Positions 28,701 through 34,700 of a DNA stretch of 64,000 bases are shown piece by piece. A program made the position numbers. This stretch comes from Burkholderiales bacterium. GTDB lineage: Bacteria; Pseudomonadota; Gammaproteobacteria; Burkholderiales; SG8-39. The number at the start of each line of letters is the position of its first letter. Positions within the stretch are counted from its first letter, which is position 1. The stretch is from assembly GCA_965279075.1 (NCBI GenBank), contig CBDIHI010000012.1, positions 1,030,388 to 1,094,387 of the forward strand, given 5' to 3'.

Positions 28701-31700
28701 AGCGCGGCGACCATGGCGCCCTCCCGCACGCCCCAGCCCGCCACCGAGATCGGCAGCATCGACAGGAACAGGACCGTGGGCATGAACACGAAGCACTGTC
28801 CGAGGCTGATCTCGATCGACAGTCCGCGGGCGAGGAAATACAGCACCACGACGTTCGCCACCTGGATCAGCACCGAGAGGCCGAAGACGTACACCGCGCC
28901 CCGGCCGCTGCGCGCGATGTCGAGGCCCAGCGACGCGAACCGGGCGAGGGTGCCCACCACGCGCCCCCTGGTCATGCGTTCCGGCAGGCGCCGCAGCACG
29001 AACACCGAGAAGATGCCGCCGAGTACGGCCGCGGCGATCAGCAGCAGGCCCAGCTCCATCTCCACGCTCTTAAGCATGGGCACGAGGAACGGGATGCTCA
29101 CCAGCACGACCGCGACCACGCCGGCGAGCCCGGAAATCCGGTCGAGCAGCACCCCCTTGGTGGCGATCGGCCCGGGCACCTGCGCGCGGATCATGCGCCA
29201 GATGCGCATGGCGTCGCCGCCGACGAATGAAATGAAGGTCTGGCTGAAGAACGCGCCCACCAGGCAGGCGTCGAGGGCCGCGCCGGCCGGGTATTTCTGG
29301 CCCTGCTGGCCGAGGAGCTCCTTCAGGCGGTAGGCGCCGAGGGCGAACTGCAGCAGCAGCAGGACGACGGCCACCAGCAGCGCGGTTGCCGGGATGGACA
29401 CCAGCGTATCCCACGCGCTCGAAAAGTCGATCCTGTGGAACGCGTACCAGACCAGGCCTGCGGACAGCACTATCTTGACCAGCAGGATCAGGGTCTTTGC
29501 CATTCGGGGGAGGGGGAGGCGGCGGGCGAAAGGCGTGACTATACCCGCTCGCCCCGGCCGGGGCGATTCGGGGCCTCCCGGCCGGAGCGCAAACCGCACC
29601 ACTATCGTAAAATTACGCCTGCAAAGCGGACCGACAACAGGAACCTACATGGGTGCAATACCAAGCTTCAAGGAGCCGGGATCGTCCAGCGCGGCGAACC
29701 TGCCGGCGGAACTCGAGATCCGCCTCTACCGCAACATGCTGCGCGTGCGCCACGCCGAGGAAACGCTGGCCGCGCTGTACCGCGAGAAGGAGATGCGCAC
29801 CCCGACGCACTTCGGCGTCGGCCAGGAAGGCGTGGCGGTGGGCGTGTGCGAAGCCCTGCGCAAGGACGACGTGGTGTACACCCACCACCGCTGCCACACC
29901 CACTACCTCGCCAAGGGCGGCAGCCTGCTGGGGCTCGTGGCCGAGCTCTACGGCCGCGAGGACGGGTGCTCCCGCGGGCGCGGCGGCTCGGTCCACCTGA
30001 CCGACCGCAGCGTCGGCATGATGGGAAGCAGTCCCATCCTGGGGCAGGGCATCGCCCTGGCGGCCGGCAGCGCGCTGGCCTTCAAGATGGACGGCGTCCC
30101 GCGCGTGGCCACCAGCTTCTTCGGCGAAGGCACCTTCGACGAAGGCATCGTCTACGAATGCTTCAACTACGCCTCGGTGAACAAGCTGCCCGTGCTGTTC
30201 GTCTGCGAGAACAACTTCTACGCCACCGAGAGCCCGATCGAGGTGCGCCAGCCCAGCGGCACCAACCTCGGCGATCGCGCGCGCGCCTTCAAGATCGAAT
30301 CCCTGAAGGTAGACGGCAACGACGTCGGCGCCGTATACGAGGCGACCCGCGCAGCGGTCGAGCGCTTGCGCAACGGCAGCGGCCCGTTCTACCTCGAGTG
30401 CGAGACCTACCGGTGGCTGGAGCACGTCGGGCCGATGTTCGACGCCGAGCTGAACCGCAGCTACCGCACCAAGGAAGAAGTCGAGCTCTGGATGAAGCGC
30501 TGCCCGGTCACCCGCGCCGCGCGCGGCCTGGTCGAACGCAAGGTGGCCACCCAGGCGCAGCTGGACCAGTGGATGGGCGAAGTGCGTTCCGAGATGGACG
30601 CCGTCGTCGCCAAGGCCAAGGCTTCGCCCTGGCCCGAGGCCTCGACGCTGTTCGAGAACGTCTACTGACCGCCCCACCGGAACCGGAACACACAATGCGC
30701 AAGATCAAATATTCACAGGCCCTGTCCGAGGGCATCGTCCAGTCGATGGAGCGGGACCCCGACATCTTCATGACGGGCATCGCGGTCGACTATCCCTCCG
30801 GCATCTTCGGCTCCACCACCGAGGCCACGAAACGCTTCCCCAAGCGGGTGTTCGACGCGCCCGCGATGGAGAACGCGCTGACCGGGATCGCCATCGGCGC
30901 CGCCGCCGTCGGCAAGCGGCCGATCATCGTCCACCCGCGCAACGATTTCATGTTCCTCGCCTTCGACATGATGATCAACCTCGCGGCCAAGTGGAAATAC
31001 ATGTACGGCGGCAACGCCGGCGTGGTGCCCATCGTGGTGCGCGCGGTCATCGGCAAGGGCTGGGGGCAGGGCGCCAGCCATTCGCAGAGCCTGCAGTCGG
31101 TGCTGGCCCACTTCCCGGGCCTCAACGTGGTGATGCCGGCTTTCCCCGCGGACGCCAAGGGCATGATCATGAGCGCGCTGAAGTCCTCGAGCCCGGTGAT
31201 CATGCTCGAGCACCGCACGCTCTACGACACCGAGGGCGACGTGCCCGAGGGCGAGCACTACACGCCCATCGGCAAGGCCGCCGTGGTGCGCGAAGGCACC
31301 GACCTCACCATCGTCGCCACCTCGTTCATGGCCTACGAGGCCGTGCACGCCGCCGAGCAGCTCGCCAAGGAAGGCGTCAGCGCCGAGGTGGTCGACGCGC
31401 GCAGCATCCGGCCGCTGGACGAGGAGACCATCCTCGCTTCGGTGAGGAAGACCGGGCGGCTGATCGTCGCGGACACCAGCTGGGAACTGTGCGGCTTCAC
31501 CAGCGAAGTCGCCGCGCTTGCCGCGGAGAAGGCCTTCAGTTCCCTCAAGGCGCCGGTGCGCCGCATCAACGTGGCGAACTGCCCCGCGCCGGTGTCGCTG
31601 CCGCTGGAGAAAGCCTTCTACCCGACGGCCACCACGATCGCCCGGGCCGCGCTGTCGATGCTCGGCAAGCACACGAGCGCGTTCGGCGACATCGACCGGG

Positions 31701-34700
31701 AGGACAACTTCAAGGGGCCGTACTGAGCGTGCTGGCCGCGTTCGCCGCGTACCTTGGCCTGCATCTCGCGGCTTACGTCGCGGTCCTGCGCGGGCTCGCC
31801 CTTTTTCGTACTGAGAAGGGCATCTTCCTGTACCACTTCGTTTCGGCGGTCCTCGCGTGCTCGGCGGCGCTGGTCGTGGCTTTCGTCGATCCAGCTGGCT
31901 TCGGGCTTGCGGGTTTCGTGATCGTGCTGTCGGTGCATGGGATCTACAGCCTTTCGTTCCTCGAGGTGTGGTCGCTGGCGCAGGGGGGGTATTCGCTGTC
32001 GATCATCGCCGGCGTCGCGCAAGCCGTAGACCGCGGCACGGAGCCCGACTTCTCCGGCCTTGCCGCAATCGGCCGCGCCAAACAGTCGGATCGTGTTGCC
32101 GCGCTCGAAAGCCTGCGGCTCGTGACGTCTTCCGCCGGCCAGCTTGGCCTCACGGCGCGTGGCGTGGCTGTAGCCGGGGCACTTCGCGCCCTTACGCGCT
32201 GGGTTGCGCCGTCCGGGCCCGACCGGAACTAGCGCGTGCCCGTCTTCGCCGCCCTTGCCGCGTTGGGTATCGCAATAGCGCTGCACGGACTGGCCATTCG
32301 CATGCCGATGAAACTCGATGTGGTGAGGCGATTCGTCGCGGTGGGTTTCCCGGTAGGCATTGCCCTCATGGCCCTGTCGTTCGGGCGGTCCGGATTCTCG
32401 GCCGAGGGGTGGGCGCCCGTACTGCTGTACGCGTTCCTGTGCGAGCTCTACATTTTCTCGTTCACCCTGGTGCTCAGCAGCGTTTCGGTGATCCTGCTGG
32501 TGATGCTTTGCGAAGGGCCGGTTGAATCCGCAGCGCTCGCCCGGGTGTACGACCCCGACGAGATGGTGAGGCTCCGCCTCGACCGGCTGGTGAAGAACGG
32601 TTTCATCGCGAGGCAGGACCGCCGTCTGTCCGTGACGGAGAAGGGGATGCAGTACCACCGGGCATTCACTTCGCTGCGGGCTTTCTTTGGGCACCAGCCG
32701 CAATGCTGACGAGCCGCAACCTCGCGCTGGCCTGGTTCGTGGTCGTCTGCGCGGTGGCGGCAGGGCTGTGGATCAGCGGGGGGTGGTTCCACCTGGAACT
32801 GCTCCCGGTCTCGGAACATGTGCGCGACCGCGGTTTGCTGACGGTGTTTGACTGGAGCGTGTTCGACGTCAATTCAGCCCGTTTGCGCCCGCTGAGCGAC
32901 CTGTTCGAAGTGATCGACGCGATTCTCCGGCCGCGCACCGTGCGCCTGTTCGGCCATCACGCGAGCCTTTCGCTTTCGGGCGTGGCGATGGCGGCCGGAT
33001 GCGTCTTCCTCCTCCACGGGGCGCTTCGCTCGATGGGATTGTCTCGAACTGAGGCCTTGGTATTCATGGCCTTCTTCGTCGCGACGATCGGGTTCCTCTC
33101 CTGCTTCGTCCCGTACATCCGTCCGGCGAAGCGGCTCGCCCTGCTGGGCCTGTGCGCGCTGCTGTTCCTGGCGTTCCGGTACATCAGGAACCCGACGAAC
33201 AAGGACATGGCATGGCTGTTCGGGGTCTTCTTCCTCACCTTGTTCACTGACGAGGCCGGGTTCGTGTATTGGCCGATCCTGCTGCTGTTACTTCGCGATC
33301 GGTTGCGGGGAAAATGGCTGGCGGGTTTCCTGGCCATGCCGTTTGCCTACCTCGTGGTGGCGAAGGTGATGCTTCCCCCGGTCTACAACCTGCTTGGGAA
33401 GTCCGGCGCGCGCGATGGCGTCATCGCCGAATCGGTGGTGACGAAATTGCTAGGCAGCTTCCTGTCGCCGGATTTCTGGGTCCTGGCGCTGGAGGACCTA
33501 GCACGCTCGGTGGCGGCCTCCCTGGGGACCCTTTCGCCCTATGACGCGCTGCCGATCCTGGCCATTATGGCGATCGGCGCCTGGGCGCTCAAGAAGGGCG
33601 CCTGGATCGTTTTTGCCGTTTCGCTTTCGCTTGTGGGCACCAGCCTTTTCCTCAGCATGCTCGACATGGTGAACACCAGCCGGAATTACATGGGGGGTGG
33701 ACCTACTACTACCACAGCCCGATGACGGTGCTGACTGTCCTTTGGCTGGCGGCGATCTACCACTGGCTGCGACCGGAGTCGACCACGATCCGGTACGTGG
33801 CGGCTTGCTGTATGGCGGCGGTGATGCTGCTCAACCTGAAGAATTTTCACCGGGTGAACGAACTGGTCAGGATCATGCATACCTATCCGCTTGCCCAGAT
33901 CAAGCCCAGGATCTACGAAAGGGAGTTGCTCGCCCGCAAGTACGAGGCCTTGCTGAATGCCGGTCCGTTGCCGCAGGCCGAGGGCCTGCGCACGCAGTTC
34001 GCCTACTATCGTGAGTATCCAATGGGCACGGACGATTACGCCGACCGCCTCGAAGGAACATTCAGGAAATCCCGCCGCTGAGGCGGCGTTCGCGCTGCGC
34101 TGTCGCACACCCACATGTCAAGACTCTCCATCGACCTCGAATCAAAGCGCTCGGAAGGCGCCGCGCCGCAGACGCTCACCGTGACTGCCGGGTTCACGGT
34201 CGACCTGGACTGGCTGCGTTCGGAAAGCCTGCGCCGCAACCTGGTGACGGGCGCGTGCCTGGCCCTGGTCGTATTGACCTTCTTTCTCAGCCTGGGCGCC
34301 GCTCTCCGCCTGAAGATGCATTCGGACGTGCCGTATTGGGTCTCTTCCGCCGTGCCGCCGGCGCTCTCGCGCGTCGCCTACGGGCACGCCAAGCACTACA
34401 TGTCGTTGAACTTTGTGCACGAGGCCTACTACGGCCAACTGACCAGCAGCTATGCCAAGGATATCAACCGCACCATTGCCGACATACTCTTGAAGTATCC
34501 CGTAGCAAACGACCACTCTGACCGCGTTCTGCCGAGCGACGACAGGGGGATCGTGGATCTGACCGAGATTTCCTTCCGAATATTCGGCTACAGGATAGAA
34601 GGCGTCCTGTACCTGTACTACATCGTCCTCGGCCTGTCCGCGGCGCTTTACGCGTACAGCTATCGCAGGAACCCGTTTGCGCTGCTGCTGCTGGCCGCAT

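Follow-up and report, generated by a model that had tools for sequence, protein, structure and literature searches.

A predicted E2-independent E1-type enzyme pair of the AviB1/AviB2-Pau11/Pau12 class in a conserved nucleotide-sugar cassette of a Burkholderiales bacterium

The stretch of 64,000 nucleotides from contig CBDIHI010000012.1 of a Burkholderiales bacterium (assembly GCA_965279075.1, positions 1,030,388 to 1,094,387, hereafter the window) contains two adjacent genes for E1-alpha-like and E1-beta-like subunits of a thiamine diphosphate (ThDP)-dependent 2-oxoacid dehydrogenase, located among nucleotide-sugar and membrane-protein genes (Table 1). The E1-alpha product matched Pfam E1_dh (PF00676) from end to end (E 7.7e-65), the E1-beta product carried the domains Transket_pyr (PF02779, E 2e-25) and Transketolase_C (PF02780, E 5e-38), and a hydropathy scan found no transmembrane (TM) segment in either protein. 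The two genes are 26 nt apart, and AGGA precedes the ATG start of E1-alpha by eight bases. Long spurious open reading frames (ORFs) are frequent in the window, which has a GC content of about 67%; however, GC at the third positions of both E1 genes was about 0.89, which matched the other genes of the window, and therefore we regarded both as genuine genes. Since the LPG_synthase_TM gene immediately upstream lies on the minus strand, the pair is divergently transcribed, and the stop codon of E1-beta (31724-31726) is followed at 31729 by the GTG of the next gene, after which the gaps or overlaps between genes did not exceed 33 nt. The preliminary description of this DNA had reported an E1-alpha/E1-beta pair of 339 and 343 aa at the head of a divergently transcribed sub-operon, followed by a small membrane-protein pair and then by polytopic membrane proteins, and this arrangement was recovered in full, with the downstream genes tightly packed.

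That description had also remarked on the lack of lipoyl-acyltransferase (E2) and dihydrolipoamide dehydrogenase (E3) genes beside the pair. Indeed, a tblastn search of all 64 kb of the window with AceF and Lpd from E. coli as queries detected neither, and Pfam scans of the called genes agreed. The control set consisted of distant E1 pairs with 36-48% identity, obtained from the same scan of species-representative genomes that gave the close relatives. In all 10 distant loci with enough flank (L026-L029 and L032-L037 in our numbering of the loci), tblastn with AceF and Lpd placed an E2 gene directly 3' of E1-beta, often together with E3, whereas the flanks of +/-10 kb in the 22 close loci, the window counted, gave no E2 or E3 gene in the same search (E2 adjacency 10/10 versus 0/22, Fisher p = 1.6e-8). 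Annotated plasmid controls agreed with this, with the order E1-alpha, E1-beta, lipoyl protein in Thermus and E1-alpha, E1-beta, dihydrolipoamide acetyltransferase in Rhizobium. Both subunits also remained below the cut-offs of the NCBI curated models for pyruvate dehydrogenase (PDH): E1-alpha reached 299 bits against 394 for PDH_E1_alph_y, and E1-beta 299 bits against 321 for the PDH E1-beta subfamily. E1-beta had weak matches to the models of 1-deoxy-D-xylulose-5-phosphate synthase (DXS) and transketolase, and relatives of the pair are labelled acetoin:DCPIP oxidoreductase or PDH E1 by JGI. The ThDP/Mg motif of E1-alpha (G-E-G...E-N-N) and the catalytic His in YRWLEH are kept, as are the Glu in 'AMEN' and the His in 'SHS' of E1-beta, and therefore the enzyme should be active; these residues are common to the AviB/Pau class and to the E1s of dehydrogenase complexes and do not discriminate between them. 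A change from GDG to GEG in E1-alpha was considered as a diagnostic residue and rejected, because GEG also occurs in the E2-linked loci L029 and L035 and family members vary at this position.

Previous work described Pau11 and Pau12 as homologues of AviB1 and AviB2 and proposed that they attach the acetyl branch at C-4' of paulomycose (PMC4753412). The window E1-beta shared 54% identity with Pau12 and the window E1-alpha 49% with Pau11, both over the full length, versus at most 48% (beta) and 42% (alpha) with E2-linked pairs. The Pau12 cluster, which bears this name in UniRef, was reached by a homology search seeded with a protein of S. albogriseolus, and its locus encodes an Acyl_transf_3 protein (Pau6-like), an aldo-keto reductase (Pau7-like), E1_dh, a SARP regulator, a cytochrome P450, an EryCIII-like glycosyltransferase, a hexose 2,3-dehydratase and chorismate-utilising functions, a gene content that fits the paulomycin cluster as published (PMC4753412). 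In a neighbour-joining tree of E1-beta alone (306 columns, C-terminal tails excluded, 100 bootstraps), E2-less and E2-linked pairs were split in 99-100/100 bootstraps, and the window family was joined with the actinobacterial clade of Pau12, Kibdelosporangium and Streptomyces proteins in 100/100. A search of plasmid proteins returned full-length matches on plasmids of Streptomyces (58% and 54%) and Azospirillum (about 44%). The kinship to AviB1/AviB2 suggested in the preliminary description is thus upheld by the identities to their published homologues, by the common clade and by a common C-terminal tail, and these comparisons support the prediction of an alpha/beta E1 enzyme that acts independently of E2 and falls in the AviB1/AviB2-Pau11/Pau12 class, to which AviB1/AviB2 are linked via the Pau sequences.

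This tail is an extension of about 20 residues, and it ended in F-x-G-P-[Y/F] in each E1-beta that had 60% identity or more and a C-terminus covered by its contig (that of L023 is lost at a contig end and stands outside the count). The ending reads FKGPY in the window family, FQGPF in Pau12, FVGPY in the Kibdelosporangium homologue, FAGPY and FIGPY on the Streptomyces plasmids, and FKGPF and FRGPF in Azospirillum; it was absent from all E2-linked E1-beta proteins examined. Among full-length database matches, F.GP[YF] closed 117/118 and 114/118 proteins, and the E2-less pair in a glycan locus on a Solidesulfovibrio magneticus plasmid (L044) was without the tail. We derived this signature in the present analysis and did not take it from the literature. 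With the heterotetrameric E1s of dehydrogenase complexes (PDB 1NI4, 1W85, 1UM9; E 1e-48 to 1e-62) the window pair shares the fold families, the ThDP/Mg motif and the catalytic His/Glu. Unlike them, it has scores below the cut-offs, no adjacent E2/E3, a separate clade, the extra C-terminal tail on the beta subunit, and, in the alpha subunit, the family motifs MRTPTHF, [D/E]EG at the position of NQG in PDH, and YRW[L/R]EHVGP, of which EHVGP belongs to the difference.

The family is widespread. More than 120 database clusters were 76-97% identical to the window E1-beta, and the scan of species-representative genomes found E1-beta at 60-93% identity in Burkholderiales, Polynucleobacter, several alphaproteobacterial families and Kordiimonas, and also in Bryobacteraceae and Sulfidibacter (Acidobacteriota) and one Lindowbacteria metagenome-assembled genome (MAG); an exact-match look-up of the window E1-beta gave no hit, and the nearest relative, at 93%, came from a Burkholderiales MAG. 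Cultured carriers are Polynucleobacter sp. IMCC 30228, Sulfidibacter corallicola M133 and Kordiimonas. Identities of 60-97% across phyla indicate strong purifying selection on E1-beta.

When the neighbourhoods of the 22 close loci were compared by ORF clustering and by tblastn with the window genes (flanks of +/-10 kb, with L008 reaching only about 1 kb past E1-beta), we observed that the pair belongs to a conserved nucleotide-sugar cassette, which recurs in Burkholderiales, Alphaproteobacteria, Acidobacteriota and Lindowbacteria. Genes for a GmhA-like isomerase, a GmhB-like phosphatase and a transaldolase accompany the E1 pair wherever the flank is long enough. The usual order elsewhere is short-chain dehydrogenase/reductase (SDR), SDR, nucleotidyltransferase-kinase, GFO, nucleotide-sugar dehydrogenase, SDR, methyltransferase, methyltransferase, E1-alpha, E1-beta, an order shown by Kordiimonas and Sulfidibacter and varied in Stellaceae, where the E1 pair comes first, and in one Xanthobacteraceae MAG. 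The 226-aa methyltransferase was present in 13/22 loci at 63-83% identity, usually directly ahead of the E1 pair, and the 233-aa methyltransferase in 11/22. The GFO gene and the gene resembling UDP-glucose dehydrogenase (UGDH) are adjacent in most loci that hold both; they are separated by an SDR gene in the window, L001 and L009, and by an unclustered ORF in L015. The preliminary description had placed the pair with the membrane-protein genes behind it. Such genes do follow, but the conserved partners are the upstream nucleotide-sugar cassette and the two methyltransferases, while the downstream membrane genes are lineage-specific.

Table 1. Genes and features of the locus (coordinates are positions in the window)
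Feature	Coordinates	Strand	Evidence
GmhA-like SIS isomerase	8595-9290	+	gmhA model 62 bits, cut-off 209
GmhB-like HAD phosphatase	9309-9848	+	GmhB model 118 bits, cut-off 178
Transaldolase	9861-10595	+	TIGR02134 351 bits, above cut-off 282
SDR (Epimerase/GDP_Man_Dehyd)	10629-11642	+	Best PDB match 6VO6/6VO8, E 1.5e-35
SDR, GalE-like	11642-12637	+	tblastn with L001 gene, 81% identity
Nucleotidyltransferase + PfkB kinase, HldE-like	12637-14187	+	PF01467 + PF00294; rfaE domain I/II models below cut-off
GFO/IDH/MocA oxidoreductase	14194-15120	+	Pfam/NCBIfam; in 14/22 loci
SDR	15123-16013	+	tblastn with L001 protein, 77% identity
Nucleotide-sugar dehydrogenase (UGDH-like)	~16000-17302	+	Pfam/NCBIfam; in 16/22 loci
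RmlD-like SDR, possible ketoreductase or epimerase	18123-19100	+	PF01370 + PF04321; in 13/22 loci
Accessory SDR	19097-19927	+	Pfam
ALS/YerE-like ThDP enzyme	19924-21708	+	Three TPP_enzyme domains; ALS/AHAS model 443 bits, cut-off 538
FkbM-type methyltransferase	21715-22560	+	Pfam
GT2 glycosyltransferase (258 aa) + GtrA-family protein	23650-24963	+	PF00535, PF04138
Class I S-adenosylmethionine (SAM) methyltransferases (two)	26619-27320; 27358-28038	+	Pfam
LPG_synthase_TM (flippase-like) membrane protein	28556-29602	-	PF03706, E 2.8e-38; with E1 pair in 6/22 loci
E1-alpha-like ThDP subunit, Pau11/AviB1 class, 339 aa	29649-30668	+	PF00676; identity to Pau11
E1-beta-like subunit, Pau12/AviB2 class, 343 aa	30695-31726	+	PF02779 + PF02780; identity to Pau12
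C-terminal extension of E1-beta, ~20 aa, ending FKGPY	31664-31723	+	Comparison of E1-beta C-termini
Downstream genes of the same operon: two small 3-TM proteins, 340 aa (~6 TM), 119 aa, 581 aa (~9 TM)	31729-35860	+	
Two tandem ~825-aa membrane proteins, YfhO/DUF6044 matches	38197-42941	-	Mutual similarity 27% over 51 aa

Several cassette genes required attention to their limits and their families. The HldE-like gene was given a start at about 12637 by its 88% identity to a 515-aa protein of L001, the mechanical ORF 11956-14187 (743 aa) being too long, and its product scored 160 bits against a cut-off of 521 with the rfaE models. Its nucleotidyltransferase domain is N-terminal and its PfkB domain C-terminal, which is the reverse of E. 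coli HldE. The GalE-like SDR gene and the SDR gene that follows GFO were hidden within longer spurious ORFs of other registers. The first SDR of the cassette had PDB 6VO6/6VO8, which we take to be Cj1427, as by far the best match among solved structures; if this identification is right, this SDR would provide a 4-keto acceptor. Cj1427 is a GDP-heptose C4-dehydrogenase (PMC10680097). The isomerase, kinase, phosphatase, nucleotidyltransferase and SDR families of the ADP- and GDP-heptose pathways (GmhA, HldE, GmhB and the Campylobacter Cj1427 route) are also those of the cassette (PMC10680097), and the conversion of GDP-octose by Lmb/Ccb enzymes, cited in PMC12945683, offers a further comparison, as the transaldolase and the UGDH-like/GFO-like pair of the lincosamide GDP-octose pathway resemble the cassette when likened by enzyme family alone. 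Relative to these heptose and lincosamide pathways, all cassette matches except the transaldolase fell below the equivalog cut-offs, the domains of the HldE-like protein are reversed, and an E1 pair is present, whereas none occurs in the known ADP-/GDP-heptose or lincosamide GDP-octose pathways. In the latter, LmbL is the UGDH-like and LmbZ the GFO-like enzyme. We also considered the cassette as a bradyrhizose cluster and dropped the idea, since the published cluster consists of 11 genes around a dTDP-glucose 4,6-dehydratase, with no ThDP enzyme mentioned.

Behind the RmlD-like SDR gene lies a trio formed by an SDR gene, a gene for a protein resembling acetolactate synthase (ALS) and an FkbM-type methyltransferase gene, with the SDR gene directly upstream of the ALS-like gene. 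The best PDB matches of the ALS-like protein were 8RPH (331 bits) and 5AHK (315 bits), slightly above plant acetohydroxyacid synthase (AHAS, 302 bits), and both entries also ranked above bacterial AHAS; 5AHK we take to be YerE of Pseudomonas protegens (PpYerE). Among the loci analysed, tblastn recovered the trio from just two, the window and Polynucleobacter L012, so that it is an accessory module outside the conserved core, which across the family has the E1 pair as its ThDP system. Of the two ThDP systems in one locus that the preliminary description had put forward, the ALS-like enzyme is thus also present, and its family matches make a second, YerE-type step by a YerE/YerF-like pair plausible in the window, but it is an accessory to the E1 pair. 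The ALS-like enzymes YerE and ErwE (yersiniose, erwiniose) transfer an acyl unit from a 2-oxo acid onto a nucleotide keto-sugar for a Gram-negative glycan (PMC9306805), and the same outcome is proposed here for the E1 pair; they are single-chain members of the decarboxylase/ALS superfamily, whereas the window pair is of the two-subunit E1 type. Erwiniose and caryophyllose were discarded as products of the E1 pair because the literature assigns them to YerE-like enzymes with longer keto-acid donors.

Further membrane-associated genes lie on both sides of the pair. The GT2 and GtrA genes are followed by a gene for a 543-aa membrane protein (segment 23650-26602), and among the loci the 258-aa GT2 and the LPG_synthase_TM protein often flank the E1 pair, with GT2 adjoining it in L004, L009, L017 and L025. 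The two YfhO/DUF6044 proteins may be extracytoplasmic glycosyltransferases that use a sugar linked to polyprenyl phosphate, and, read from the family names, GT2, GtrA, the 543-aa protein, the YfhO/DUF6044 pair and the downstream membrane proteins would fit a polyprenyl-phosphate-sugar route to an extracytoplasmic glycan. Behind E1-beta, the small proteins encoded at 31729-32232 and 32236-32709 each combine three TM segments (counted, as for the other proteins of this operon, by hydropathy scan) with a soluble C-terminal part; they have no significant similarity to each other, and none of the five genes downstream of E1-beta matched a Pfam or NCBIfam family. Faint winged-helix matches, under the Pfam cut-offs, were noted for the soluble parts. 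These membrane genes are conserved only in L008, L009, L012 and L014, among them a few loci of Burkholderiales type, and the E1 pair can be explained without them. A second small-membrane-protein pair without family match is located at 22598-23621. Farther downstream, an IS30-family transposase gene (37053-38075, minus strand, HTH_38 and weak rve) stands beside an apparently truncated membrane-protein ORF (35913 to about 36320), a palindrome with a 20-bp stem was seen at 37813-37856, and the GC content of 0.61-0.64 at 32-38 kb suggests a recently acquired or rearranged segment. In the metagenomic relative L004, the region 18295-21038 encodes a 653-aa CofD-like protein, a HAD hydrolase and a nucleotidyltransferase, which is unusual for a glycan locus.

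More distant E2-less relatives were found on plasmids. On a plasmid of Azospirillum oryzae, a tail-bearing E1 pair is flanked by genes for a PfkB kinase, a SIS isomerase and SDRs in one direction and by two DegT aminotransferase genes in the other, so that the link of this E1 class to heptose-type activation recurs; the Azospirillum loci combine the E1 pair and heptose-type genes with no GFO/UGDH pair. The Azospirillum plasmids (L043, L047) and Solidesulfovibrio magneticus pDMC1 (L044) all have E2-less E1 pairs in glycan loci followed by DegT aminotransferases, whose family hints at amino-branched sugars, and in two of these three loci, L047 and L044, a radical SAM enzyme and a NUDIX protein occur with the pair. 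The closest of these relatives on plasmids, from a cultured organism, is the pair on Streptomyces griseofuscus pSGRIFU1 (L042), where the region 12989-18519 encodes a 1103-aa condensation-domain protein, an acyl carrier protein (ACP) and a phosphopantetheinyl transferase (PPTase) among gamma-butyrolactone regulators, and the clade of the window pair may thus include enzymes with other, non-sugar acceptors.

The term 'alpha-keto acid dehydrogenase 2' (alphaKADH2) is used in a review for sugar-branching enzymes of the E1 type, and the coupling of pyruvate to ketones by one of them, KbDH-alpha/beta, was demonstrated in vitro (PMC12247030). The Pau11/12, AviB1/B2, aldgamycin, kosinostatin and kibdelomycin (KbDH) pairs have adjacent E1 genes, no E2/E3 beside them and a deoxy- or keto-sugar pathway around them. 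The window shares the adjacent E1 genes with no E2/E3 beside them, and its nucleotide-sugar cassette with several SDR and GFO oxidoreductases may be such a keto-sugar pathway. However, the known Pau/Avi/KbDH-type members serve actinomycete secondary metabolism and act on 2,6-dideoxy or similar hexose ketones, whereas the sister clade of the window pair is found in Proteobacteria, Acidobacteriota and further phyla, and the pair is accompanied by a cassette for heptose-type activation, by two methyltransferases and by export genes of the polyprenyl-phosphate type, a combination that points to a cell-surface glycan.

By analogy with these enzymes, we consider it likely that the window pair catalyses a ThDP-dependent, E2-independent transfer of an acetyl/hydroxyethyl unit from pyruvate onto a keto-sugar nucleotide; our confidence in the identity of the acceptor (heptose-type, possibly 4-keto) is considerably lower than in this general mechanism. 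Beyond the gene structure, family, clade, lack of adjacent E2/E3 and conserved neighbours observed above, we infer the donor, the acceptor, the branch position, the order of steps and the destination of the sugar as follows. ThDP would be bound at the alpha/beta interface, and pyruvate would be decarboxylated to give the hydroxyethyl-ThDP carbanion. The two-carbon unit would bypass a lipoyl-E2 and attack the carbonyl of a keto-sugar activated as a nucleotide; the product would be a tertiary alcohol that carries an acetyl branch, and this branch may later be reduced to 1-hydroxyethyl, perhaps by one of the SDRs. The sugar is probably a heptose-type nucleotide sugar supplied by the upstream cassette, in which the transaldolase would provide a ketose phosphate, the GmhA-like isomerase, PfkB kinase, GmhB-like phosphatase and nucleotidyltransferase would activate it, and an SDR would oxidise one ring position to the ketone. 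Tailoring would involve further SDRs, the GFO/UGDH-like pair and the two methyltransferases, and the GT2, the GtrA/LPG_synthase_TM-type flippase candidates and the large membrane proteins would bring the sugar via a polyprenyl phosphate carrier to a surface glycan.

Several points weigh against this scheme. The naming of the ketone-forming enzyme depends on PDB 6VO6 being, presumably, Cj1427. No heptose-type genes were present within the fetched +/-10 kb in L004, L008, L010 and L013, and the pSGRIFU1 pair, at 58% identity and with the tail, has the condensation-domain protein and ACP genes as neighbours instead of sugar genes. The His residues that interact with the lipoyl group are still present, so the sequence is compatible with use of an E2, and E2/E3 may be encoded elsewhere in the genome, the absence that we report covering the 64-kb window. 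AviB1/AviB2 themselves were compared by their published homology to Pau11/Pau12 and not by sequence, and the reaction is termed 'proposed' even for AviB1/B2 and Pau11/12 (PMC4753412), so that the chemistry of the family would be read from homology.

Three other explanations were considered. An ordinary E1 of an acetoin, pyruvate or other 2-oxoacid dehydrogenase, with its E2/E3 elsewhere in the genome and an incidental position in a glycan locus, would account for the JGI names of the relatives and for the conserved catalytic His/Glu that are used with lipoyl-E2, but it is highly improbable in view of the scores of both subunits under the PDH equivalog cut-offs, the separate clade of E2-linked E1-beta (99-100/100) with E2 directly downstream as against 0/22 close loci, the retention of the pair inside the same sugar cassette in at least four phyla, and the tail that complex-forming E1-beta proteins lack. 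An acyl or hydroxyalkyl transfer to a carrier protein, a lipid or another acceptor that is not a sugar, or action on a polyprenyl-phosphate-linked sugar at the membrane, appears very unlikely, since most loci tie the pair to soluble nucleotide-sugar enzymes and methyltransferases, neither E1 subunit has TM segments, and the small membrane proteins are conserved in few lineages; what speaks for it is the pSGRIFU1 relative beside a condensation-domain protein, ACP and PPTase, the translational coupling of the window E1-beta to the small membrane proteins, and the frequency of GT2 and LPG_synthase_TM genes as neighbours.

The third possibility is a ThDP enzyme of the sugar pathway that does not branch a ring ketone and instead, like DXS or transketolase, lengthens a chain at a terminal aldehyde, or cleaves an acyloin in the manner of the acetoin dehydrogenase E1. 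GFO and UGDH-like genes usually occur with the E1 pair and near each other, an aldehyde from a UGDH-like enzyme is conceivable, E1-beta does match the DXS and transketolase models weakly, and the cassette families resemble those of the lincosamide octose route (LmbR/N/P/K/O/M/L/Z), which likewise draws on a transaldolase, an isomerase, a kinase, a phosphatase and a nucleotidyltransferase. However, the Lmb enzymes were likened by family only and not by sequence, the Azospirillum loci have the E1 pair and heptose-type genes with no GFO/UGDH pair, and two-carbon branching at a ring ketone is the chemistry associated with the nearest named relatives, Pau11/12 and the Kibdelosporangium homologue of KbDH (PMC4753412, PMC12247030). 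We judge this explanation unlikely, and we retain the two-carbon transfer to a ring ketone of a nucleotide sugar as our interpretation of the pair.

A review assigned YerE-like enzymes to lipopolysaccharide (LPS) sugars and the E1-type alphaKADH2 to actinomycete secondary metabolites, with about 120 biosynthetic gene clusters (PMC12247030), and a contrast between Gram-negative and Gram-positive branching enzymes was also drawn in PMC4753412. The window, by contrast, combines YerE-like and E1-type genes. No relevant paper emerged when the literature was searched for O-antigen clusters that include PDH E1 genes, and the literature searched describes neither a branching enzyme of the E1 type from a glycan locus of Proteobacteria nor its occurrence together with a YerE-like enzyme. 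The protein is a clear homologue of a known class; what is new is its setting in a heptose-type surface-glycan cassette that crosses phyla. Further, we speculate, with more doubt than conviction, that the cassette makes an undescribed, O-methylated heptose- or octose-type sugar with a C-acetyl or 1-hydroxyethyl branch, which would be exported via polyprenyl phosphate to the surface glycans of freshwater, soil and marine Gram-negative bacteria, that the YerE-like module adds a second branch in the window and Polynucleobacter to give a doubly C-branched sugar, and that the tail replaces the interaction with E2 or builds the sugar-nucleotide site.

Automated annotation at present calls E2-independent E1 pairs PDH or acetoin dehydrogenase, and the C-terminal F-x-G-P-[Y/F] would be a simple marker to tell such pairs of the carboligase type from the E1s of complexes. 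The results indicate that Proteobacteria, Acidobacteriota and other phyla carry in their glycan loci a sister family of E1-type enzymes that is both large and highly conserved. This family may be a source of new ketone-accepting carboligases for biocatalysis, and its tie to heptose-type activation predicts an unknown branched higher sugar on the surfaces of environmental bacteria.

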